Below are positions 1-52,550 of a stretch of DNA of 52,615 nucleotides, piece after piece. The notes beneath the pieces were generated by a model. That model was not told where the DNA came from. It ran no database searches and was given only the letters and a program-made list of their open reading frames with translations. The position numbers and the translations under genes were made by a program. This DNA is from Escherichia phage vB_EcoP_Bp7. Numbering within the stretch: position 1 is the stretch's first letter; each line of letters starts with the position of its first letter. Location: sequence record NC_079181.1. The stretch is one strand, 5' to 3'.

Positions 1-1941
1 ATGACTACTATCACCACTCAAACTATCAAATCCGTTGTTCCTGCTATCACTGCTCTGGTATATCGTGCCAAAGAGAAACAGAACTATATGCAGCCTCAGA
101 CTTGTGCTATTGCTGCCTTAGCCATCTTCAAGATGATGACGTCTTTCACTCGTGATGACGTTGTTCCTGCCATCGCGATGGTTGAGCTGGCTTCTGCTTC
201 TATTGCTGATGCCAACCGTTATAACAACGATTTGAAAGCAATGCACTATGTTGACCCAGCTATCAACCTGATTGGTTTGGCTAAGCACTTTGGCTTCATC
301 ACCATGAACGAAGACAAGTCATTCCAACAAACTGATACATGGGTTGAACTGGTTACAACCAAAGACACAGCAGTGCCATTCACTGAGCGTGTTACATCTG
401 AATCTCGTCGCAAGCCTTTCGTTAAAGGTGGCAAAGTTAAGCCATCCAAAACTCTGAAAGCTGCAATCGAATTCCTGCAAGATACTGAGTACCATGTGGA
501 GACTGAGATGGTTCGCATCATCCAGTCCATGCTTGAACAACGTACCTACGGTGGTTTGCAGATGCCAGAAGCAATCCAGACTGAACTCCATGTTTGGAAC
601 AATGCTGTAGCAATGATGAATCAGGACACACTGTATTCTGATTACTTTGCTGATAACCGTGGTCGTCTGTATCACGTAGCATGTGCTGGTCCTAACCCAC
701 AATCATCTGACTTTGCTCGTTGCTTGTATTCTCACAATGTTGAGAACATCGTTAAGAAGTTTAACGAAGATGGTTCTACTACCATTGCATACAACATGTT
801 CATGGCAGAGCTGGAAGATATTTCTGGTGGTGAATGGTGCAGTGCTAAGCGTTTAACTTATGTTGCTCAGAATCCAGCTGGTTCACTTGCTCGCATGATG
901 AACATGCCTAAAGCTGAACGTCCTTCTAAGCCATTCACTTATGTTCGTCTGGCTCTGGATTGGTTCAAGTTTGAGACTACAGGTGAGTGCGATTCTCGTG
1001 TAGGCTTTGGCTTAGATGCTAAATGTTCTGGTACTCAATATCTGGCATTCATTGCTGGTAACATGGAAATGGCTCGTGCAACAGGTCTGGTTGATTCTGA
1101 GACTAAAGCATCTGACCCATACCAGTTGAGTCTTCGTGAACTGTTGAAGCTGCTGGACAAGTCTTCAATGAAGCCATCTCCTGAAATCATGGATGAATTC
1201 TTGAATCCGAAAGCTGGTCGTAAGTTTATCAAAACTCCGTACATGGCTATCCAATACGGTGGTGGTAAAGCTGCACTAACTGGTTCATCTGACTTCATCA
1301 GCTACATGACAGAAGCACTCCAGATTCCTATGGAGAAAGCAGAAGCATTTGCTGAACTGTGTGTGGAAGCAATCCATAACGCATTGGGTGCTAAGATTAA
1401 CATGTTCATTGAGAAAGCTGCTGAAGCTGCATACAACCGTTGTGTTGAACTTGGTAAAGAGTACATCACATATCGTCACACTGATGGTCAGGTTGTAATG
1501 AAGCCTTGCTTCCCATCTCGTGAAATCTGTGAGGCATTCAGCATTCGTGTTGATAGTCAAACTCGTGTTATCTTTGGTCAGATTCAGGAGAATAAGCCTT
1601 GGACCATTCGTGAATCCAATCCAACTAAAGAAGAATTCAAGCGTACTTTCGTTGTTAACTACATTCAGGGCATTGATGCACTTGTTGCTCGTACTGTTGC
1701 AGTTAAAGCTAAAGAAGCTGGTCTTCGTGGCTTCACTTCAATCCATGATTGTTTCCGTTGCTGTTTGGCAGACGCTCCACGTATGATGGAAGTTATTCGT
1801 GCAGCATATGTTGAAATCTTCGTAACCAACAATCAGTTCGAGAATCTGTCTAAGCAACTCGGTGGCATTCAGATGTATCATGAGAACATCGTAACTGAAG
1901 AGCTTCTGATGAGCGAACACGCTTACTACTTCTGTCAATAA
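1..1941 (+). CDS. T7-like single-subunit DNA-dependent RNA polymerase, compact (646 aa)
   Basis: Palm motifs in translation: motif A GFGLDAKCSGTQYLAF, motif B RKFIKTPYMAIQYGGGK, motif C SIHDCF. ATG at base 1; a GGAG lies 8 nt upstream across the window junction (52604-52607) if the sequence is circularly contiguous. Confidence 0.9.
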   Translation: MTTITTQTIKSVVPAITALVYRAKEKQNYMQPQTCAIAALAIFKMMTSFTRDDVVPAIAMVELASASIADANRYNNDLKAMHYVDPAINLIGLAKHFGFITMNEDKSFQQTDTWVELVTTKDTAVPFTERVTSESRRKPFVKGGKVKPSKTLKAAIEFLQDTEYHVETEMVRIIQSMLEQRTYGGLQMPEAIQTELHVWNNAVAMMNQDTLYSDYFADNRGRLYHVACAGPNPQSSDFARCLYSHNVENIVKKFNEDGSTTIAYNMFMAELEDISGGEWCSAKRLTYVAQNPAGSLARMMNMPKAERPSKPFTYVRLALDWFKFETTGECDSRVGFGLDAKCSGTQYLAFIAGNMEMARATGLVDSETKASDPYQLSLRELLKLLDKSSMKPSPEIMDEFLNPKAGRKFIKTPYMAIQYGGGKAALTGSSDFISYMTEALQIPMEKAEAFAELCVEAIHNALGAKINMFIEKAAEAAYNRCVELGKEYITYRHTDGQVVMKPCFPSREICEAFSIRVDSQTRVIFGQIQENKPWTIRESNPTKEEFKRTFVVNYIQGIDALVARTVAVKAKEAGLRGFTSIHDCFRCCLADAPRMMEVIRAAYVEIFVTNNQFENLSKQLGGIQMYHENIVTEELLMSEHAYYFCQ

Positions 1942-2299: not shown

Positions 2300-3135
2300 G
2301 AAATATTCCGCATGTCATGTTGAATCATTCTAGAAACATTCAGCATGTCAGCTTTGAGTTACAGTGTTGTAATGATGTGGCAATCATTGAACTCCCTAGG
2401 TAGGCCACCTACAGTTCCAGCAACCATGACTTAGAGTAGGAATATCTATCCGAAACTTGTACTTCACCTATAGCATGTTCAATTGCGACAATATTGCTCC
2501 ATCTCCTATTATAAAGGCCCACCCACAAGCCGGGAGATAACTTTGGTAATATTGGAACTTTTGGACATGCTTCTTTCTTTCTACAAGAATTCGAAAGAAG
2601 AGAAGAAGTCGGACAAAGCATCTCGTTTGCACGCAGAAGCCGCCCCGATTTTGAGCAACAAATATTGTGACAATTGCGTCGCAGTATGGCATGTAAATAT
2701 TGCTACAAATTGGCATGTTGGAATGTGGCAGAATTGTTAGAGGACTAATCACCTCGAAGATACAATCGTCTACCAATCTGGCATGTTAATTTTGTAACAG
2801 TATTTGTGCCAATTTCGCATGTAGTATTTAACCCAATATTCTTGCAACCCGCATGAATACTGGCTTCCAGCCAAGCGAAGGCTTTATCATCGCATGTAAT
2901 ATTGTGACAATATTGGGATAAAACCCTTTATTTAAATCATTTAGTTTATTAATTAAATGGTCGGTTTTCTGTACATAGGTATTCAGCTGTTTGTGCCAAA
3001 TACAAACAAGTTGGCTGCTTCTACAGAACTCCAGTGCTATAAATGTTCGTGCCAATCTGCTGCAATTTATCTCATTTGGCGGGGTAATATTGTATTAGAT
3101 TGGCATGTCATTCTTTCGATTAGTTGCATGTGAAT
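2300..3135. repeat. non-coding array of degenerate repeats (core GCATGT about 12 times, palindrome CAATATTG about 5 times) with an AT-rich stretch
   Basis: Read directly, e.g. tggcatgtaaat, tggcatgttgg, tggcatgttaat, tcgcatgtagta, tcgcatgtaat, tggcatgtcatt, ttgcatgtgaat; AT-rich 2925-2990; no credible ORF. Confidence 0.6.
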
Positions 3136-7101: not shown

Positions 7102-7120
7102 ACATTAGTTGATTGTGAAT
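7102..7120 (+). promoter_or_regulatory. phage promoter-like motif P2 (acattagttgattgtgaat)
   Basis: Part of a ~65-bp intergenic module (7055-7120) duplicated at 7446-7509. Confidence 0.55.
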
Positions 7121-7490: not shown

Positions 7491-7509
7491 ACATTAGTTG
7501 GATTTGAAG
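7491..7509 (+). promoter_or_regulatory. phage promoter-like motif P3 (acattagttggatttgaag)
   Basis: Conserved motif about 75 bp upstream of the 7583 gene. Confidence 0.55.
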
Positions 7510-9042: not shown

Positions 9043-9393
9043 ATGAAAACTTTATATATTGCACTGACAATACTGTTCGGAGTATTCGCATTTAAATCGG
9101 AAGCGTCTGTTCGCAACTTCCAGTGTGGCGGATACAAAATGTCCGTTGAAACAATTACAATGAGCCAGCCACTCATTGCAACAATTTCCTTGCACGAAGG
9201 TACTTGGATTGAGATTCCAGACAATGGGAATCCTAACCCAATGTCCACAGTGTTCTATAACACACAGAGCAGTAAGCTGGCTTTAGTTGGTGTTGACGCT
9301 GAGGAACGTTTAGTGCTACAGATTTATCGTGACATTGACTTCTTTCATGCCAAATTTCCACTTTTATCAACATATTGTAAGGAAGTTAAATGA
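9043..9393 (+). CDS. secreted protein (116 aa)
   Basis: N-terminal signal peptide MKTLYIALTILFGVFAFKSEA. Confidence 0.55.
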   Translation: MKTLYIALTILFGVFAFKSEASVRNFQCGGYKMSVETITMSQPLIATISLHEGTWIEIPDNGNPNPMSTVFYNTQSSKLALVGVDAEERLVLQIYRDIDFFHAKFPLLSTYCKEVK

Positions 9394-9623: not shown

Positions 9624-9882
9624 AGAACTGGCTGACCATCTTGAGGCAGCAAAACGAGAGTCTGCAATTCAGTCAGGACGTATTGCAAAACTGAAAGGGC
9701 AAGACTCAACGTCCGAAGAAATCCAGCTGTTCACAGACAATATCTGGTTTTCAATGAATCGTGCACAGTTTATCGAGATTCAGGAAGAACGCCTTACTGA
9801 ACTGGAAAAGCGTGTAGAAACACTTGAGAGCTTGCTTGTAACACTGCAAGAAACTCTGGACCAGGAACTGAAAAATGTCTAA
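9613..9882 (+). CDS. hypothetical coiled-coil protein (89 aa, non-ATG start)
   Basis: ORF from the track; helical heptad-like sequence. Confidence 0.4.
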   Translation: MKVEELADHLEAAKRESAIQSGRIAKLKGQDSTSEEIQLFTDNIWFSMNRAQFIEIQEERLTELEKRVETLESLLVTLQETLDQELKNV

Positions 9883-10273
9883 CGTTAAGCTGGGCCAACG
9901 CTCCCTTGACCGACTCAAAGGTGTAAATCCTTCATTGGTGGCAGTTTTCAAGCGTGCATGTGAAACAATGCCGTTTGATGTAACTGTTCTTGAAGGTTTG
10001 CGTACTTATGAGCGTCAACAAGAGCTTTTAAAGCAAGGTGCAACCAAAGTTTCAGTTAGCCGACACATGTCAGGCAATGCTTTAGACATTGCACCATATC
10101 CGATTGACTGGAATGACCTTGAACGATTCCAAATTGTAGCTGAACACATGTTCAAAGCTGCAAAAGAGCTTGGAATTACCATTCGTTGGGGTGGAACATG
10201 GGAACGAACCTTCACTAAGCCAGTGAAATGGGCTAAGTTCCTGGATGCACCACACTTCGAACTTCCAGCATAA
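9875..10273 (+). CDS. peptidase M15-type peptidoglycan hydrolase (132 aa)
   Basis: Zinc-binding motifs SRHMSGNALD (H-x6-D) and DAPHFE, as in M15_3 / T5-type L-Ala-D-Glu endopeptidases. Confidence 0.75.
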   Translation: MSNVKLGQRSLDRLKGVNPSLVAVFKRACETMPFDVTVLEGLRTYERQQELLKQGATKVSVSRHMSGNALDIAPYPIDWNDLERFQIVAEHMFKAAKELGITIRWGGTWERTFTKPVKWAKFLDAPHFELPA

Positions 10274-14968: not shown

Positions 14969-15061
14969 GGACGAGTAGCTCAGAAGGTCTGCTCCAGAGC
15001 TTAGTCAGGTAGAGCAATCTGTTAGGCAGATGTGTCGTTGGTTCGAATCCAACCTCGTCCA
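14969..15061 (+). tRNA. atypical 93-nt tRNA-like gene (isotype unresolved, possibly Leu)
   Basis: Perfect 7-bp acceptor stem (GGACGAG / CTCGTCC) and canonical T-arm (GTTGG-TTCGAAT-CCAAC), but about 20 extra nt in the D-arm region; candidate anticodons UAG or CAG depending on the fold. Confidence 0.45.
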
Positions 15062-15242: not shown

Positions 15243-15479
15243 ATGCAACAGCTTAAATCAATAGTTCTTGGCGTCCTGACTGCATTTGGTATTCTTATTG
15301 CAGTGTTCCTCAAAGGCAAAAGCTCAGGCAAAGCCGAGGAGCGTCAGGAAGCCACAGAGAAGCAACTAGATTCATTAAAAGAATCTATCGAGATTAAATC
15401 GCATGTTCAGAAAGAAGTGTCTAGCAGTTCTGATAGCAATGTCGATAGTGAGTTGCTCTCAAAGTGGGTTCGTAAGTGA
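15243..15479 (+). CDS. i-spanin-like membrane protein (78 aa)
   Basis: N-terminal TM segment IVLGVLTAFGILIAVFL followed by a charged helical region; AGGTGA SD. Confidence 0.45.
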   Translation: MQQLKSIVLGVLTAFGILIAVFLKGKSSGKAEERQEATEKQLDSLKESIEIKSHVQKEVSSSSDSNVDSELLSKWVRK

Positions 15480-15612
15480 TTATTGCTTAATTGCACAACC
15501 AATCTATTTGGATGTTGCAGAAGTGAAAATACTATCACGCGAAACCAAAACACAGATTTTAGTCCACAATGAAACGTGGGCACAAAAGTGTTCGAAACTT
15601 ACCCGACAGTGA
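15403..15612 (+). CDS. o-spanin-like lipoprotein (69 aa), overlapping the previous gene in another frame
   Basis: Lipoprotein signal MFRKKCLAVLIAMSIVSC with lipobox IVSC; overlapped two-frame layout as in Rz/Rz1 pairs. Confidence 0.45.
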   Translation: MFRKKCLAVLIAMSIVSCSQSGFVSDYCLIAQPIYLDVAEVKILSRETKTQILVHNETWAQKCSKLTRQ

Positions 15613-36647: not shown

Positions 36648-37106
36648 ATGGCTTGTGAATTGCTTCAACGTGAATTCACAAACTCCAAAGGTGAAACAGT
36701 GTTAGTCGTTGTTCGACAATTGTCGGCTTCGGCTGCACTGTCTCTTCACGCGGAGTTGGTAAGCAAGCTAGGCTCACGAGTATTCCCATTCATCGAAGGC
36801 AAATATAACTTCGCTGATATTATATACTTGATGCAGCAAGTGGAGCATACCGTATTCACAGAATTGTTTAAGCGTGTTATCAGCATGCACTCGTCCATAG
36901 ATGGACAAGAAATCAAACCTGCATTATATGATATGCAGTTTAATGGCGAATTGATGTTGTCTTGCCATGTCTTTGCTTTCGTGCTCGAAGCAAACTTCCT
37001 TGATTTTTTCAAGCAAGGGCTCGAAATCAACGAACAGAGACGATTGGAGGCGGAGGAAGCATCCAAGCTGGCAGAGCAGAAGAATTCGAGTCCGGAGACA
37101 GTTTAG
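36648..37106 (+). CDS. putative tail assembly chaperone (152 aa)
   Basis: Position between tube and tape measure; acidic C-terminus. Confidence 0.4.
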   Translation: MACELLQREFTNSKGETVLVVVRQLSASAALSLHAELVSKLGSRVFPFIEGKYNFADIIYLMQQVEHTVFTELFKRVISMHSSIDGQEIKPALYDMQFNGELMLSCHVFAFVLEANFLDFFKQGLEINEQRRLEAEEASKLAEQKNSSPETV

Positions 37107-37265: not shown

Positions 37266-40200
37266 ATGAAGACAATGGCTAATCAAAAAGATTTAATGAA
37301 GTTGAGCGTTAATGAGTTAATTGCATTAGGCTCTCAAAGCGGTCTGACTTTCCACGCTGGTATGAAGAAGTCGCACATGGTTCAACAACTTAGTGCGAGC
37401 GCTGCTTCGGGATGGCTGGATACAAATGCAGAATTAATGGGTGGGTCGTTTGAAGACGACAGTTTAATTACTGAATCTCTGGGCGACTCTTCCATGATTT
37501 CAGACGCTGCCCACATTGCACAAGTGCTTTCAAGTGCAGGCTACACAGAAGCATTTCATGCAGCAATGAATGGCCCATCACACCATGTAGAAGCTGTTCA
37601 CGCATACATGGAAAGGCTTGGTGTCAACACAGACGATGTGTGGATGCACATGCCAAAGCCAAATCCGAACTTACCGCAAGGTAGTTTCAATATGCTTAAT
37701 GCCTATATGCGAGATACTTTGCAAGGGCATCAAGACATTATGCCGGAAATCCCAGGCCATTATGCTGGCGATATTATGGCAGAATACTCCACCAACCGTG
37801 GAAACATTGCTGACTCTTATAACTACATGGCCCACATGTATGTTGACCGAGAGCAATACAGCAATCATGAACAATACGCAAGAGACATTAGTCGAGTTGC
37901 CAAACGTCTGGAACGAGAGTTACCCTCAGCCTTTAAGGAAGTTGGGTATACATCTGCATCTAATGTAGGAAATAAATCGGCCCCACATATTTCTTACATG
38001 GACGCACTCCCTCAGATTGGCTCTCCTTCAATTGTTTCTGGCATTGCACATCCTCGTGCGCCCCTTAACGCATCTGGACTTCCTCTCGGTTCTTATGGTT
38101 CTGGCATAAATCCAGAATACTCCCTCACTGCATCACTAACTGGTGGCACAGGTTGGAGCGAACCAAGCAAGGCTTTGTATTCTTCTATTAGTGAAGCTGT
38201 TAAATCTGCTGCCAAAGTTTATTCTGGCTCCAAAGGGATGCTGAATACCCGTCACGAAGTATCTGACCGTGACATGATTATGGATAGTGCAACACGCTAC
38301 ACAGATTTGGAAGAAGCCAGGAGCGGGTACGAAAACCTTCGTTCTGAACTTGCAGATGAGCCAGCTTATTCTGCATCAAGTGTTCGAGCTATTCTCGAAA
38401 ACACTTATGATAAAATGGATGCCGAACCTGTTCGCATTCCAAAGATGAAGGGAGCTTCACAGCGAGTCGATAAAGATTCACTGTCAACATCTACAGATTT
38501 TACAGCACAACTTGGGGAGGCCACCAATTGGAACTCTGCAAGAATGCGTCGTGAGGAACTTGCGATTGCAAATATGGATAGTGCTGGATTCCGTGATGTA
38601 TCAGACTATGGTACAGGACGTTCCGAGTCCCCCGTCCGATTCCATGACTTAGAACAGGGCAGCCAAGAGTGGCTGGACTTCCGTAAAAATTATGACATAA
38701 CTGGTTCAACTGTTGGAACCTTCTTAGGAAACAACCCATATACCCGACCTTGGGCTGGGATGATTGATAAGATTGGCTTATCTCGTAGTAAAGAGCACAG
38801 CGATTTCACCAAGAAGATGTTCGCTGATGGTCACAGGACGGAAGAAGAAGCACGCGCTCGTGTTGGTAAGGAATTTGGATTCGATATCAAACAAACTGGC
38901 GCTATAACAAATGACAACTATCCCGCCTTCATGTATTCTCCTGATGGTCTTATTGGGGATGATGCCATTTGGGAGCACAAGAATCCGCAAAGGGCTGGTA
39001 AGTTTGCTGACCTTCTTAAAGGCGACCATCCAGATTACATGGACCAAATTCAATTTGGCTTGCACGTTTCTGGTCGTTCTCGTGCTCTGTTCTCACAAAC
39101 CATCAACGACGAAACACGTTCACAATGGATTGAGAAGGACGAAGGATGGTACGAAAGAAACCGAAATCGCCTTGATTCTGTGCTTGGCCGTCTTGATGCT
39201 GGGCGAGAGTTTGTTAGAAACAATGCTGGGCTAGGGCGAGAAGAGCTGATTGCTGGTGCAAGAAGTGCAATGACTGGTGATGGAATCTGGAAGGATATTC
39301 GTCAAAAGTCCACTCGTGGCTATTCTGCTGCTGCTGGTACTCCAGAAGACCCGTTTATTGGCTCACGCTCTTCGTACAACCCAGAAGCATCCTACTCTGA
39401 CTACAAGCCAAACTTTGTAATGCACGAGCAAAACTTTCCAGCAACCACAGGAAACGGTGATACTGGAAATGACTCGATGGCATTGTCTGTTAAGAAAGGT
39501 ATTCTTGCTGCCCAGGAAGAAAACAGGCAGAAGGGTATTAGTGCAGATGCAGACTTTGATGGCAAAGCCGACTCAATGGGCTGGAACCGTGAAAGATTTG
39601 ATGCTGCCAATGGCGGTGGATATTCTGGCGGTGGCGGTGGTCGTGGCGGCAACTTCACAAGTGGTGGCAACTACTATGATGACTACGGTCGCATGGGTGG
39701 TTCGTTAGCTGCTGGCATTGCTGGTGGCAGTATTGGTTCAGCAACCAACGGAGTTATGCAAGCATTGATGGCGACTCCTGCTGGGCGTATGGCTGCTGTA
39801 GGCATTGGTGCTATTCAGATTGGCAATGAAGCTGCTGAATACATGAATGACTTTATCGGCAACTCGCTTGATGCTGGTGTGATAAATCCTAATGAATATT
39901 CTTCCATGTCGCAAGGCTTGGAGATGTTAGGACTCAACTCACAACAAGCGGCACGTCTGAATCAAACCACACATAGTGCCTACAACACCATGCTTAACGG
40001 CGACCCCAGCGCCGCTGTGAACATCGTTCGCGGAAGTAGGGGATTGCTCACCATAGGTGATATTCGTGCGACAGGCGGCGACCCTGTGGCCCTAGCTCGC
40101 ATCATGCAGGAAAGGGGCAAGGAGCGTGGCTGGAGTCAGGCCCGTATCGCAGGTGCTGCCGAAATGGCTGGCCTGAATGGGATGGCCCGTGCCTACGACC

Positions 40201-40991
40201 GCACGGAATACAGCCATGAGCAAGCTGGTTCGGTGGTAGAAGCGGGTAGAAACTCTGACTTTGCCGAAGGCATGGCTCAGTCAGAAATGTTGCAGGGAAG
40301 CCGCGTACGGATGCTGCCGAGCTACAACGTGCCACAAAGTGTCTTATCTAACGGTGCTTCTGTATTCGAAGCTGGTAGCGATGCACTTGACGGTGTACGA
40401 ACTGGATTCAACAAAACACGAGAATTTGCTGGAAGTGTTTACGACTTTATCGCTCAAGAAGAATCTGGCGGTAGTGAATATAACAGGGATGGTTCTCGTG
40501 TAACAAGTCGTACTGGTGCTCGTGGAATAATGCAAATTCTTCCTTCAACTGCCCGTGACCCAGGATTTGGAATCAAGCCGTCTGATGGAACTCCAGAAGA
40601 TGATGCACGAGTTGGTCGTGAATACTATGACGCAATGTACAAGCGTTATGGCGACCACGAAAAGGCAATGGCTGCTTACACCGATGGTCCTGGCACTGTT
40701 GACAAAGCTATTGACAAGAATGGGCTGGATTGGCTAACTGCTGTTCCTGCACAAGCACAGAATCGCGTTAAAGCATTCCGTGAATGGTCCAAGTCTTCTC
40801 AGTCTTTGGAAGAAGGTGCTACAGGGTTTACCCGTAATGGAATGTCATACGGACAAACCCAAACTGTTGTTAATGTTAAGATTGATGCTAAGGTCAACAA
40901 CCAGACTGCTTCTGCTACAGTTGCAATTCCTGGTGGCCAGACTGTGACTCAACAAATGAACATGAACAACGGTGCGCAACAAAGAAGGTAA
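37266..40991 (+). CDS. tape-measure-like protein with embedded YqaJ-like PD-(D/E)XK nuclease domain and C-terminal lytic transglycosylase domain (1241 aa)
   Basis: Rho_N/SAP-like N-terminus; YqaJ-like EQGSQEWLDFRKNYDITGS with SPDG...IWEHK (D-x10-ExK) around 38630-39090; Gly-rich hydrophobic segment; SLT-like QEESGG...TGARGIMQILPSTA around 40450-40750. Confidence 0.7.
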   Translation: MKTMANQKDLMKLSVNELIALGSQSGLTFHAGMKKSHMVQQLSASAASGWLDTNAELMGGSFEDDSLITESLGDSSMISDAAHIAQVLSSAGYTEAFHAAMNGPSHHVEAVHAYMERLGVNTDDVWMHMPKPNPNLPQGSFNMLNAYMRDTLQGHQDIMPEIPGHYAGDIMAEYSTNRGNIADSYNYMAHMYVDREQYSNHEQYARDISRVAKRLERELPSAFKEVGYTSASNVGNKSAPHISYMDALPQIGSPSIVSGIAHPRAPLNASGLPLGSYGSGINPEYSLTASLTGGTGWSEPSKALYSSISEAVKSAAKVYSGSKGMLNTRHEVSDRDMIMDSATRYTDLEEARSGYENLRSELADEPAYSASSVRAILENTYDKMDAEPVRIPKMKGASQRVDKDSLSTSTDFTAQLGEATNWNSARMRREELAIANMDSAGFRDVSDYGTGRSESPVRFHDLEQGSQEWLDFRKNYDITGSTVGTFLGNNPYTRPWAGMIDKIGLSRSKEHSDFTKKMFADGHRTEEEARARVGKEFGFDIKQTGAITNDNYPAFMYSPDGLIGDDAIWEHKNPQRAGKFADLLKGDHPDYMDQIQFGLHVSGRSRALFSQTINDETRSQWIEKDEGWYERNRNRLDSVLGRLDAGREFVRNNAGLGREELIAGARSAMTGDGIWKDIRQKSTRGYSAAAGTPEDPFIGSRSSYNPEASYSDYKPNFVMHEQNFPATTGNGDTGNDSMALSVKKGILAAQEENRQKGISADADFDGKADSMGWNRERFDAANGGGYSGGGGGRGGNFTSGGNYYDDYGRMGGSLAAGIAGGSIGSATNGVMQALMATPAGRMAAVGIGAIQIGNEAAEYMNDFIGNSLDAGVINPNEYSSMSQGLEMLGLNSQQAARLNQTTHSAYNTMLNGDPSAAVNIVRGSRGLLTIGDIRATGGDPVALARIMQERGKERGWSQARIAGAAEMAGLNGMARAYDRTEYSHEQAGSVVEAGRNSDFAEGMAQSEMLQGSRVRMLPSYNVPQSVLSNGASVFEAGSDALDGVRTGFNKTREFAGSVYDFIAQEESGGSEYNRDGSRVTSRTGARGIMQILPSTARDPGFGIKPSDGTPEDDARVGREYYDAMYKRYGDHEKAMAAYTDGPGTVDKAIDKNGLDWLTAVPAQAQNRVKAFREWSKSSQSLEEGATGFTRNGMSYGQTQTVVNVKIDAKVNNQTASATVAIPGGQTVTQQMNMNNGAQQRR

Positions 40992-41023: not shown

Positions 41024-41042
41024 ACATTAGTTGAATATGTAT
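41024..41042 (+). promoter_or_regulatory. phage promoter-like motif P7 (acattagttgaatatgtat)
   Basis: Conserved motif 23 bp upstream of the 41065 gene. Confidence 0.5.
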
Positions 41043-42174: not shown

Positions 42175-43061
42175 TGTCTATCTTTGATACCGACCTCATT
42201 GGTGGTGTGTCCTCTGGCTTGAAGAATTTCAGTTATGGGCATCATCCATCTATTGTTATGTGGTCCAATGGACCTGCATCTCAGAAGGAAGAAGAGTCAG
42301 GACTGTTTGGTGGGTTTGCGAAATCTCTTGAGAGCTTGCCTATTGTTGGTGAATCTGCCGTAGAAAGTTTTAACTCTTTTAAATTCGATGCTATGGTTAG
42401 TGAAGAGCACGCATCGGAAACAACTGTAACCAAGTTCCCTGTCAGTTCTGGGTTCCTGGTTAGCGACCATGTTATTAATCAGAACAGGGTACTTAAGTTA
42501 ACCGCTGTTGCTGTCAACATGCAGAACTCCTCCATGTGGACTGCATCTGTACAAGGTTTGTCCGTTGCTTCTGGTGCAATCTTCAATAGCCCGATTATCC
42601 CAATTCTTGGTGGCATTGCTGGTGGCGTTGCTTCTGCATTTGAAACAAGCAACCGAATCCAGTCTACCTACGATTTGTTTAACAGCTTCCGTGTTACGGG
42701 GCAGAAGTTATACATCTCCACCATTCTGGGGCCTTATTTGAATTGCGTAGTAACCTCAATCAAAACCAAACATGATAAAATGTCTTCTGCAATGTTGGCA
42801 GTTGAAATTATGTTTGAGGAATTGCAGACAGTTGATGAAGATGCTCTTGCCAGCGAAGCTCGTAAAGCAATGGAATCAATGTCCGACTACTCTGAATTTG
42901 CAAAGGTTGCTCAAAGTTTGGGGATGGGTGTTCTTGGAGGTGTTCCGCTTCCTGGACTTGGTGCTCTTGGCACTCTTCCGACCAAACAGTTATCTAACTT
43001 GAAAGGTAAGTTAAGTAAACTGGCTTCTCCACTTTCTTCCATCAAGGGGCGTATCCTATGA
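42174..43061 (+). CDS. tail/baseplate protein (295 aa)
   Basis: Position; ATGA overlap. Confidence 0.45.
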   Translation: MSIFDTDLIGGVSSGLKNFSYGHHPSIVMWSNGPASQKEEESGLFGGFAKSLESLPIVGESAVESFNSFKFDAMVSEEHASETTVTKFPVSSGFLVSDHVINQNRVLKLTAVAVNMQNSSMWTASVQGLSVASGAIFNSPIIPILGGIAGGVASAFETSNRIQSTYDLFNSFRVTGQKLYISTILGPYLNCVVTSIKTKHDKMSSAMLAVEIMFEELQTVDEDALASEARKAMESMSDYSEFAKVAQSLGMGVLGGVPLPGLGALGTLPTKQLSNLKGKLSKLASPLSSIKGRIL

Positions 43062-49936: not shown

Positions 49937-50278
49937 ATGGAACGATTATCCATTCAAATGTTTGTGGACCTGATGCACCAATATGGCGTATGGCATGGAT
50001 TATTGGCTGGTCTTACGGCTTTAATTCGTGGGGCATATGAGAGTGAAGGCTTAAGCAAGGCGCTGCTGGATGCGGCGCTGTGCAGCTTAATCGGCCTGTT
50101 TGCCTTTCATGTTGCTGGCACATTTGAGACTTTCACGACTAACGTCACTATGCAGTTAGTATTGGCTATCGTTATTGGTGTCATTGGTGCAAACCTCATT
50201 ATCACAACTGTCAGGGAAAGTTTCTCTGGCGCAATCAAACAACTTAACCCTTTGACGTGGTTCAAGAAGGTACGATGA
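49937..50278 (+). CDS. putative holin (113 aa, three predicted TM segments)
   Basis: ATG at 49937 with AAGGAAA upstream; three hydrophobic stretches; directly upstream of the endolysin. Confidence 0.5.
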   Translation: MERLSIQMFVDLMHQYGVWHGLLAGLTALIRGAYESEGLSKALLDAALCSLIGLFAFHVAGTFETFTTNVTMQLVLAIVIGVIGANLIITTVRESFSGAIKQLNPLTWFKKVR

Positions 50279-50295
50279 AATGATAAGGAACTCGA

Positions 50296-50850
50296 ATGCT
50301 ATCATTCAAAGTCCTTGCAGTTCTGGCAGCTTTAGTTCACATCAACGCCCCAGCTTCGGTTGGGGCAGTGAATTCTGCTATTACAGATTTTGCAAGTCAT
50401 TCCTATTTAAATGGAAGTCTGAAACTATCTTCTTCACAACGCAAAGAGCTAGAATGCTATACTAAAGTTATTTGGTATGAAGCTCGCGGAGAAGACAAAC
50501 ATGGAAAGATTCTGGTAGCTAATGTCGTCCGTAATAGAACCAAGTTCGGGAAGCCATTCGCTAACACCGTTTGTGATGTTGTCTATCAACGCAATCAATT
50601 TGCATGGACACGAGAAGCAAAGAAGAAGAATGCTCAATGGAAGCATGTAGCAAAGATTAATTATGCCACGGAACAACAACAAGTTCTGGACACCATTAAT
50701 GTTGCAATCTCTTTTGTATTATTTAATCAACCCTCTGTCACCAAAGCAACCCACTTTTGTACAGCATCGGAGAAGTGCAACTTCAAGAATGTCAAAGGTT
50801 TGGGACGTTACGGTGGCCACAAATTCTATGAGTATCTAGGAAATCTGTAA
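50296..50850 (+). CDS. endolysin, SleB-like cell wall hydrolase with N-terminal signal/SAR-like segment
   Basis: Hydrolase_2/SleB signature [22 protein letters not shown] ... VVYQRNQF; N-terminal hydrophobic [19 protein letters not shown]. Confidence 0.7.
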
Positions 50851-52330: not shown

Positions 52331-52531
52331 CACTTCGCTCGCTTTATATTATAATTTTATTTTTGGGCCAGCGGGGAGGGGAAGCCCAACGTCCTATCGG
52401 ACTTAAAATACGGTCCCTACTCCAACTTTTTCCTACAGCCTATCGGCTTTCAAACAACACCAAGTTAGGCGCTTCGCTTATGGGTCAAGGTCAAAGTCTC
52501 CGTGCTGTTGTAACAATGGCACAGGTTTGTG

Positions 52532-52550
52532 ATATTAGTTGGACGTGAAT
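52532..52550 (+). promoter_or_regulatory. phage promoter-like motif P8 (atattagttggacgtgaat), upstream of the RNAP gene if circular
   Basis: Conserved motif about 65 bp before the window end; RNAP ATG is at base 1. Confidence 0.5.

Follow-up and report, generated by a model that had tools for sequence, protein, structure and literature searches.

Two predicted muralytic exit enzymes and a separate virion transglycosylase domain in Escherichia phage vB_EcoP_Bp7

The 52,615-nucleotide stretch of Escherichia phage vB_EcoP_Bp7 analysed here (NC_079181.1; "the window" throughout, meaning the whole stretch) encodes three predicted muralytic domains, namely an M15 zinc peptidase, a SleB-like hydrolase next to the holin, and a soluble lytic transglycosylase (SLT) domain within the protein at the tape-measure position. 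An earlier note, made from the sequence alone, had claimed three such activities at these places, and this holds: the catalytic motifs are intact, the matches lie far beyond chance, and the Pfam scores exceed the curated cutoffs for all three domains. We consider it moderately likely, judging from sequence, that they belong to a T7-style dispersed lysis system with two muralytic exit enzymes and a separate virion entry enzyme. The finding is correct but already known and largely ordinary, because relatives (ST32, SA91KD, Y2 and others) label both the M15 and the SleB-like genes 'endolysin' and other phage groups have a like layout. Coordinates are collected in Table 1.

The three predicted muralytic domains

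The M15 product matches Pfam Peptidase_M15_4 (PF13539) at 36.6 bits (cutoff 25, E 7e-9) and PHROG 465 'endolysin' (E 7e-56). It also matches the solved M15C L-Ala-D-Glu peptidases 23ri (4.6e-24), 8q2g (~5e-24) and EndoT5 2mxz (2e-20), as well as Serratia ChiX 5opz (E 1.5e-17). The H-x6-D and PHFE motifs reported beforehand are real and read S62-R-H64-M-S-G-N-A-L-D71 and L-D124-A-P-H127-F-E. The protein is 40% identical to T5 Lys, and its residues H64, D71, W109, D124 and H127, which occupy invariant columns of our M15 alignment (A3), correspond to H66, D73, W114, D130 and H133 of EndoT5. There, H66, D73 and H133 are the zinc ligands, D130 is catalytic and W114 is essential (PMC10487532); the phiEcoM-GJ1 and ST32 orthologues appear among the M15_C endolysin orthologues in the same work. 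A score above the hidden Markov model cutoff, likeness to characterised members and the full EndoT5 residue set thus place the product in M15 subfamily C. Its N-terminus (MSNVKLGQRSLDRLKG...) is charged and contains no hydrophobic segment, in line with the claimed absence of a signal peptide. On these grounds the protein is predicted to be a cytoplasmic, holin-dependent endolysin that cleaves the L-Ala-D-Glu bond.

The window enzyme differs from its 138-aa ST32 and SA91KD orthologues, in length (132 aa) and, by an indel and sequence changes, at residues 109-123 (10199..10243), the loop running from the conserved Trp to the catalytic Asp (W109-D124). This loop is basic in the window, whereas the T5 enzyme has an acidic one at the same place in the alignment. 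In EndoT5 the regulatory Ca2+ site lies in the mobile loop that carries W114 (PMC10487532). Because the basic loop stands where that Ca2+-site loop lies, the window enzyme may be Ca2+-independent.

We also considered the M15 protein as a regulator of RNA polymerase (RNAP) of the T7 lysozyme type. As a family assignment this was rejected because the folds are unrelated: the protein is an M15 LAS-type peptidase, not Amidase_2 (PGRP-like), and only its gene position resembles that of gene 3.5. A regulatory action on RNAP is kept as an idea of low probability.

The holin matches PF05106 (33.3 bits, cutoff 23.8) and PHROG 126, and the Myduc record describes the orthologue there (55% identity) as 'Class I holin - three TMDs'. 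The PF05106 match together with three hydrophobic segments seen in the sequence assigns it to class I of the lambda S family. Class I holins of the lambda S type release folded cytoplasmic endolysins.

As previously noted, the SleB-like gene follows the holin gene, starting 18 nt past its stop codon. Its product matches Pfam Hydrolase_2 (PF07486) at 58.8 bits (cutoff 27). An AlphaFold2 model built with 46 homologues (pLDDT 85.9) was searched with Foldseek, and the only meaningful PDB matches were the SleB catalytic domains 4fet and 4f55 (B. anthracis, B. cereus), with probability 1.0 and target-normalised TM-scores of 0.63-0.70. Glu62, in the motif Y-E-A-R-G-E, is invariant in 23 diverse sequences that include T5, Vibrio and Aeromonas phage homologues; it is likewise invariant in a 46-sequence alignment and lines up with 'GESRGE' of B. 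cereus SleB. Cys54 and Cys93 are also invariant in the 23-sequence alignment, which would fit a periplasmic protein. Residues 1-24 form a predicted signal peptide (the next residue is V) and residues 22-39 a single helix. The N-terminal peptidoglycan-binding domain of full-length Bacillus SleB was not found with Pfam, which detected Hydrolase_2 alone; for this reason the protein is a catalytic-domain-only relative and not a SleB orthologue.

The N-terminus of this protein had been described as resembling either a signal peptide or a signal-anchor-release (SAR) segment. SAR endolysins carry a weakly hydrophobic N-terminal transmembrane (TM) segment of about 18-20 or more residues and no signal-peptidase site. 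By our own heuristic, applied to 52 SleB-like homologues, the hydrophobic core spans 8-14 residues in 51; a polar stretch comes next, in which positions -3/-1 hold small residues (ASVGA in Carltongylesvirus, ASA in Y2, SHA, VHA in Myduc, AEA in ZPAH140 and SQA in T5). The annotation of the orthologue in Myduc reads 'No TMD - endolysin (not SAR)'. The short core and the conserved small-residue site favour the signal half of the description and make the SAR half less likely; the N-terminus is probably a cleavable Sec signal peptide.

The claimed SLT domain on the tape-measure-like protein is confirmed by a PF01464 score of 49.7 bits (cutoff 21.3). Its motifs E1066-S, G-I-M-Q (1087-1090) and A-Y-T-D-G (1137-1141) are those of family 1, and the domain matches Slt70 (1qsa) with E 3e-4 over the GLMQ...AYNAG region. 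Relatives label the 1241-aa protein variously as tail fibre, tape measure or endonuclease. It has full-length homologues across Cleopatravirinae and is 100% identical to the Bp10 protein; the 4HA13 homologue (63.5% identity), labelled 'tail tape measure protein', comes second among the proteins detected by liquid chromatography-mass spectrometry in CsCl-purified virions (PMC9699118). A chaperone gene upstream, genes for Dit-like and other baseplate proteins downstream, and the presence of the homologue in 4HA13 virions identify the protein as the tape measure.

The same protein contains, upstream of the SLT domain, a YqaJ/lambda-exonuclease-like PD-(D/E)XK domain (38655..39185, aa ~464-640; Pfam E 4.3e-13, PDB 3syy 1.2e-6) with an intact motif, SPDG (D560)...E570-x-K572. 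The VPs20 homologue also gives a weak YqaJ match. It is unusual for a tape measure to contain a nuclease domain.

A tblastn search found no CHAP or M15_3 paralogue in the window. As for a fourth muralytic enzyme, ten baseplate and fibre proteins contained no muralytic Pfam domain; the remaining small open reading frames (ORFs) were only partly scanned.

Table 1 Features of the window that bear on lysis, entry and their expression
Feature	Coordinates	Strand	Basis
Predicted M15C (T5 Lys-type) zinc L-alanoyl-D-glutamate peptidase, 132 aa, ATG start	9875..10273	+	PF13539, PHROG 465, PDB matches, catalytic residues
Holin of class I (lambda S family), 113 aa with three hydrophobic segments; its gene directly follows the last tail-fibre gene	49937..50278	+	PF05106, PHROG 126
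Predicted SleB/Hydrolase_2-type lytic transglycosylase, 184 aa, predicted Sec signal, Glu62, Cys54, Cys93	50296..50850	+	Pfam, model/Foldseek, alignments A1, A2
1241-aa tape-measure-position virion protein, YqaJ/lambda-exo-like and C-terminal SLT domains	37266..40991	+	Pfam YqaJ, SLT; PHROG 19855
SLT domain, aa 1061-1152, family-1 motifs	40446..40721	+	PF01464, Slt70 1qsa
Tail assembly chaperone; its gene immediately precedes the one at the tape-measure position	36648..37106	+	Pfam Phage_TAC_15 (PF21822), E 2.9e-18
Phage-RNAP-type promoter motif CATTAGTTGGATTTGAA heading the SSB homologue / M15 / ArdA-like unit	7492..7508	+	SA91KD-derived motif
Phage-RNAP-type promoter motif at the head of the late unit (genes for baseplate, fibres, holin, SleB-like enzyme, nrdB)	41025..41041	+	matches SA91KD promoter at 42766
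i-spanin, 78 aa, N-terminal TM segment IVLGVLTAFGILIAVFL, then charged periplasmic domain	15243..15479	+	ORF list, homology
o-spanin, 69 aa, lipobox IVS-C; overlaps 3' end of i-spanin gene	15403..15612	+	lipobox scan

Genome context and expression units

By sequence, the window represents a myophage of the phiEcoM-GJ1/ST32 type, a group whose members have a T7-like RNA polymerase, and belongs to Chaseviridae, Cleopatravirinae, Carltongylesvirus, a taxonomy taken from the record of its relative SA91KD. A 3-kb stretch around the M15 gene is 95.6% identical in DNA to Escherichia phage vB_EcoM_Bp10 and 90-96% identical to TH53, SA91KD, ST32, DE15 and flopper. The annotated genes of the relatives all lie on one strand, as do the larger ORFs of the window (+).

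A promoter motif, CATTAGTKGRAWDTGDR, was derived from the promoters annotated in SA91KD and matches the window at 8 sites, each of them on the + strand, where 0.04 would be expected. These phage-RNAP-type copies (CATTAGTTGGAtgTGAA) lie at 2268, 7103, 7492, 11412, 11553, 13519, 21487 and 41025, and a weaker copy lies at 52530-52549, after nrdB. The M15 gene, between the SSB homologue and the primase-helicase, is downstream of the copies at 7103 and 7492 and shares its unit with the SSB homologue (annotated as such in relatives) and an ArdA-like gene. The holin gene, the SleB-like gene and nrdB form the end of the unit that starts at 41025. The earlier note had placed the M15 gene in the early region; this needs adjustment, because a gene in a unit driven by the 7492 motif is better described as middle, or T7 class II-like, than as strictly early.

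The lysis genes include a pair of overlapped two-component spanins of the Rz/Rz1 type. When all + strand start codons were scanned for a lipobox, the o-spanin was the only match; it is 51% identical to the Rz-like spanin of PM1 and 37% to that of Myduc. The i-spanin shares 32-34% identity with the genes that carry an i-spanin/Rz-like spanin annotation in Myduc and PM1. Kongari et al. (PMC6139136) list phiEcoM-GJ1 among phages with two-component spanins. The homologous SA91KD DNA (NC_079183.1, 16165-16531) carries no spanin annotation. With the spanin pair distant from the holin as well as from the M15 gene, the lysis genes occupy three separate loci, at 9.9 kb (M15), 15.3 kb (spanins) and 50 kb (holin and SleB-like enzyme).

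Conservation in Chaseviridae and parallels in other phages

Six genomes were compared: the Carltongylesvirus type (represented by the window and SA91KD), Y2, PM1, Myduc, VPs20 and ZPAH140, the last from a record without a family assignment. An exported SleB-like enzyme and one signal-less peptidase are present in all six. Within Carltongylesvirus, phiEcoM-GJ1, ST32, SA91KD and Bp10 have the same genes in the same order as the window; their DNA is 92-96% identical to it near the M15 gene, and their SleB-like proteins are 98-99.5% identical to that of the window. The SleB-like gene follows the holin in Erwinia Y2, Pectobacterium PM1 and Proteus Myduc, and so, with SA91KD, in all four Cleopatravirinae compared; the accompanying peptidase is M15C at the early locus in Y2, CHAP at the M15C locus upstream of the anti-restriction gene in PM1, and M15_3 (E 2e-30) in the early region in Myduc. 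In Vibrio VPs20 (Nefertitivirinae) and Aeromonas ZPAH140 the SleB-like gene lies at the late genome end with an M15_3 gene directly adjacent. Searches with tblastn found neither M15C nor M15_3 in the complete PM1 genome, and no M15C in the complete VPs20 genome.

For the signal-less peptidase, the pattern that emerges from these sequences is one of non-orthologous replacement under selection for function. A peptidase is kept in each genome although its family and position vary, which argues for selection for both enzymes. The M15_3 genes that adjoin the SleB-like gene in VPs20 (2544..2915 of the region analysed) and ZPAH140 (1011..1376 of the region analysed) encode proteins 32-33% identical to the M15_3 of Myduc, whose gene sits in the early region. 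This suggests that in the course of Chaseviridae evolution the peptidase either left the late cassette or was replaced.

The trio of predicted muralytic enzymes is, on sequence comparison, not peculiar to the window; it is kept across Chaseviridae and recurs in T5-like phages and Certrevirus. T5 itself encodes members of both lysis-enzyme families: its M15C peptidase is signal-less and 40% identical to that of the window, and its Hydrolase_2 enzyme, which has a Sec signal, is 32% identical over 116 aa. The arrangement is reversed, however: in T5 the holin adjoins M15C and the SleB-like gene is remote, whereas in the window the holin adjoins the SleB-like gene and M15 is remote. The T5 'sleB' gene has a clear signal peptide (MKAAWLLVAALTFSFSSQA, followed by SHD) and lies behind annotated early promoters, 22 kb from the holin-M15C cassette. 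Phage vB_EcoS_FFH_1 also carries both M15C and SleB-like genes, and Salmonella T5-like phages show the same M15/SleB-like split, in a paper that asks which of the two enzymes is used (PMC11180984).

In Certrevirus CB7, 'three potential peptidoglycan-degrading enzymes' have been described: one is a virion lysin, one a T5-like M15 peptidase, and one a SleB-like protein that has a signal peptide and is encoded beside a putative holin (PMC7344957). The layout is close to that of the window, with M15 elsewhere than the SleB-like and putative holin genes and the spanins at a further locus; it differs in that the CB7 virion lysin is gp25-like, where the window has the tape-measure SLT, and that its holin candidate is class II. 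Other certreviruses have a lysozyme-like enzyme in place of M15. The SleB-like CB7_83 is reported to be toxic on expression in E. coli, and its homologue CR3_087 has been implicated in lysis (PMC7344957).

A further parallel is positional. On the T7 map, the gp3.5 amidase lies in class II and the gp17.5 holin after the fibre gene; gp18.5/18.7 are the spanins. Both T7 and the window phage encode a single-subunit RNAP, and both appear, by analogy, to have the endolysin gene in the replication module, the holin directly after the tail fibre and the spanins elsewhere. The two differ in that the T7 endolysin is an Amidase_2 enzyme that binds the phage RNAP, while the window enzyme is an M15 peptidase and its phage a myovirus; T7 is not known to have an exported second muralytic enzyme. 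As the positions of M15 and the holin mirror those of T7 genes 3.5 and 17.5, an endolysin far from its holin would by this analogy be normal for an RNAP-encoding lineage.

Bacillus SleB (4F55, 4FET) shares with the window protein the catalytic-domain fold and the E-A/S-R-G-E motif bearing the catalytic Glu. Unlike it, SleB has an N-terminal peptidoglycan-binding domain, in place of which the window protein has its signal peptide and one helix. The murein of the E. coli host is without muramic delta-lactam, so the substrate specificity of the SleB-like enzyme probably differs from that of spore SleB.

As to published work on the family, a Chaseviridae endolysin paper (PMC11538084) deals with an unrelated lysozyme-like enzyme of Pantoea phage PA1 and is uninformative here; neither the paper on the Carltongylesvirus 'Tiny' nor the announcement of Myduc gives lysis-gene, RNA-seq or proteomic data for the proteins considered here.

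Lysis model, alternatives and neighbouring features

The dispersed lysis system that we favour builds on domains, catalytic residues, signals, gene order, promoter motifs and conservation, all read from sequence, and from these we infer timing, export, activity and cooperation. M15 would be made from the middle (class II-like) operon and accumulate harmlessly in the cytoplasm. The holin and the SleB-like enzyme would be made late, from the end of the late operon, with Sec exporting the SleB-like enzyme to the periplasm. Once the holin triggers, the membrane would be depolarised and M15 would reach the murein. There M15 would cleave the L-Ala-D-Glu bonds of the stems and the SleB-like enzyme the glycan strands; the spanins would then disrupt the outer membrane. 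The SLT domain of the tape measure would instead serve entry, being ejected at infection to open the murein locally for the tail tube and DNA. This entry role is proposed because of the chaperone upstream, the 4HA13 virion proteomics and the intact ES/GIMQ/AYTDG motifs.

Several points weigh against this model. A literature search found no activity, localisation or timing data for Chaseviridae lysis proteins. The secreted SleB-like enzyme of T5 is encoded behind annotated early promoters, yet T5 causes no early lysis; such enzymes need not lyse alone, and that of the window may have a non-lysis role. A free periplasmic transglycosylase would need restraint before the holin fires, and none was identified. 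The comparison with T7 is an analogy of gene positions and does not test the model. Finally, the uncharged N-terminal stretch of the SleB-like protein spans 25 residues in Carltongylesvirus and the signal call is heuristic, so SAR-like behaviour or an uncleaved anchor has to be considered, as a less likely alternative to a cleaved signal.

The two main rival readings assign the endolysin function to one of the two exit enzymes alone. It is unlikely that M15 alone plays this part, with the SleB-like protein in some other periplasmic role (murein remodelling, superinfection exclusion or help to the spanins) and its adjacency to the holin reflecting late co-expression. Such a division would accord with T5, where the proven endolysin is an M15C enzyme adjoining the holin while the signal-bearing SleB-like gene, 22 kb off behind early promoters, evidently causes no early lysis, and with the same split in T5-like Salmonella phages (PMC11180984). 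However, the catalytic Glu of the SleB-like protein is invariant, its gene is strictly adjacent to the holin in Cleopatravirinae, and toxicity and lysis have been reported for Vequintavirinae homologues; an alternative function for the protein is also without direct support.

The converse reading, which we regard as quite unlikely, makes the SleB-like protein the only real endolysin, exported by Sec and activated when the adjacent holin collapses the membrane potential, and gives cytoplasmic M15 a non-lytic job in the middle phase, such as cleaving murein precursors or recycling products, or controlling the phage RNA polymerase in the manner of T7 lysozyme. The SleB-like gene does adjoin the holin and is orthologous and position-conserved across the family; the Myduc record calls its product an endolysin ('not SAR'); CB7_83 toxicity and the CR3_087 lysis report point the same way; and M15 shares its transcription unit with replication and anti-restriction genes. 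Against this, M15 keeps all catalytic residues of a proven endolysin, and its fold is unrelated to the amidase fold of T7 lysozyme. A signal-less peptidase is kept in all genomes examined despite replacement, and lies inside the late lysis cassette in VPs20 and ZPAH140, which is hard to explain without a lysis role. Moreover, an exported enzyme needs no large-hole class I holin.

A stricter form of cooperation between the two enzymes has also been considered. That murein attack should be an obligatory two-step process, by a Sec-exported SleB-type transglycosylase and a holin-released cytoplasmic stem-peptide peptidase, seems to us improbable on present sequence evidence, although the recurrence of the pair in Chaseviridae (with M15C, M15_3 or CHAP), in T5-like phages and in Certrevirus CB7 might reflect it. 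In this reading the SleB-like enzyme would stay latent in the periplasm and, like spore-cortex SleB, cleave only strands whose stems had been removed or trimmed, so that the peptidase would make its substrate after holin triggering. If true, this would explain how the SleB-like enzyme of T5 can be expressed early without lysis. Least probable by far is that fewer than three activities exist because at least one of the domains has become an inactive relic: each of the three retains intact catalytic residues and motifs, which homologues as distant as 22-60% identity share.

In practical terms, the analysis corrects and completes the lysis map, with M15 in the middle operon, holin and SleB-like enzyme late, spanins at 15.2-15.6 kb and an SLT tape measure. 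Beyond this genome, a second muralytic enzyme in the form of an exported SleB-like hydrolase is widespread among phages of Gram-negative bacteria, occurring in Chaseviridae, T5-like phages and Vequintavirinae; our literature search found no direct functional study of these hydrolases. Whether the SleB-like protein is a true endolysin, a peptidase-dependent helper or something else affects both the annotation of lysis cassettes and the choice of enzybiotics.

Two minor features lie near the M15 and spanin loci. A whole-window Rfam scan and ARAGORN returned no RNA genes at threshold. A tRNA-like element at 14998..15053 (+) scores 27 bits against the Rfam tRNA model (gathering score 29), covering model positions 9-63 with the acceptor stem unmatched; ARAGORN calls no tRNA in the window, and a tRNA is annotated in the corresponding gene-poor region of ST32, Myduc and PM1. 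Three genes upstream of M15, in the same unit, 9043..9393 encodes a 116-aa protein with a clear N-terminal signal peptide (MKTLYIALTILFGVFAFKSEA...). This protein belongs to PHROG 35432 (function unknown), has no Pfam match, and is possibly a middle-phase periplasmic factor.

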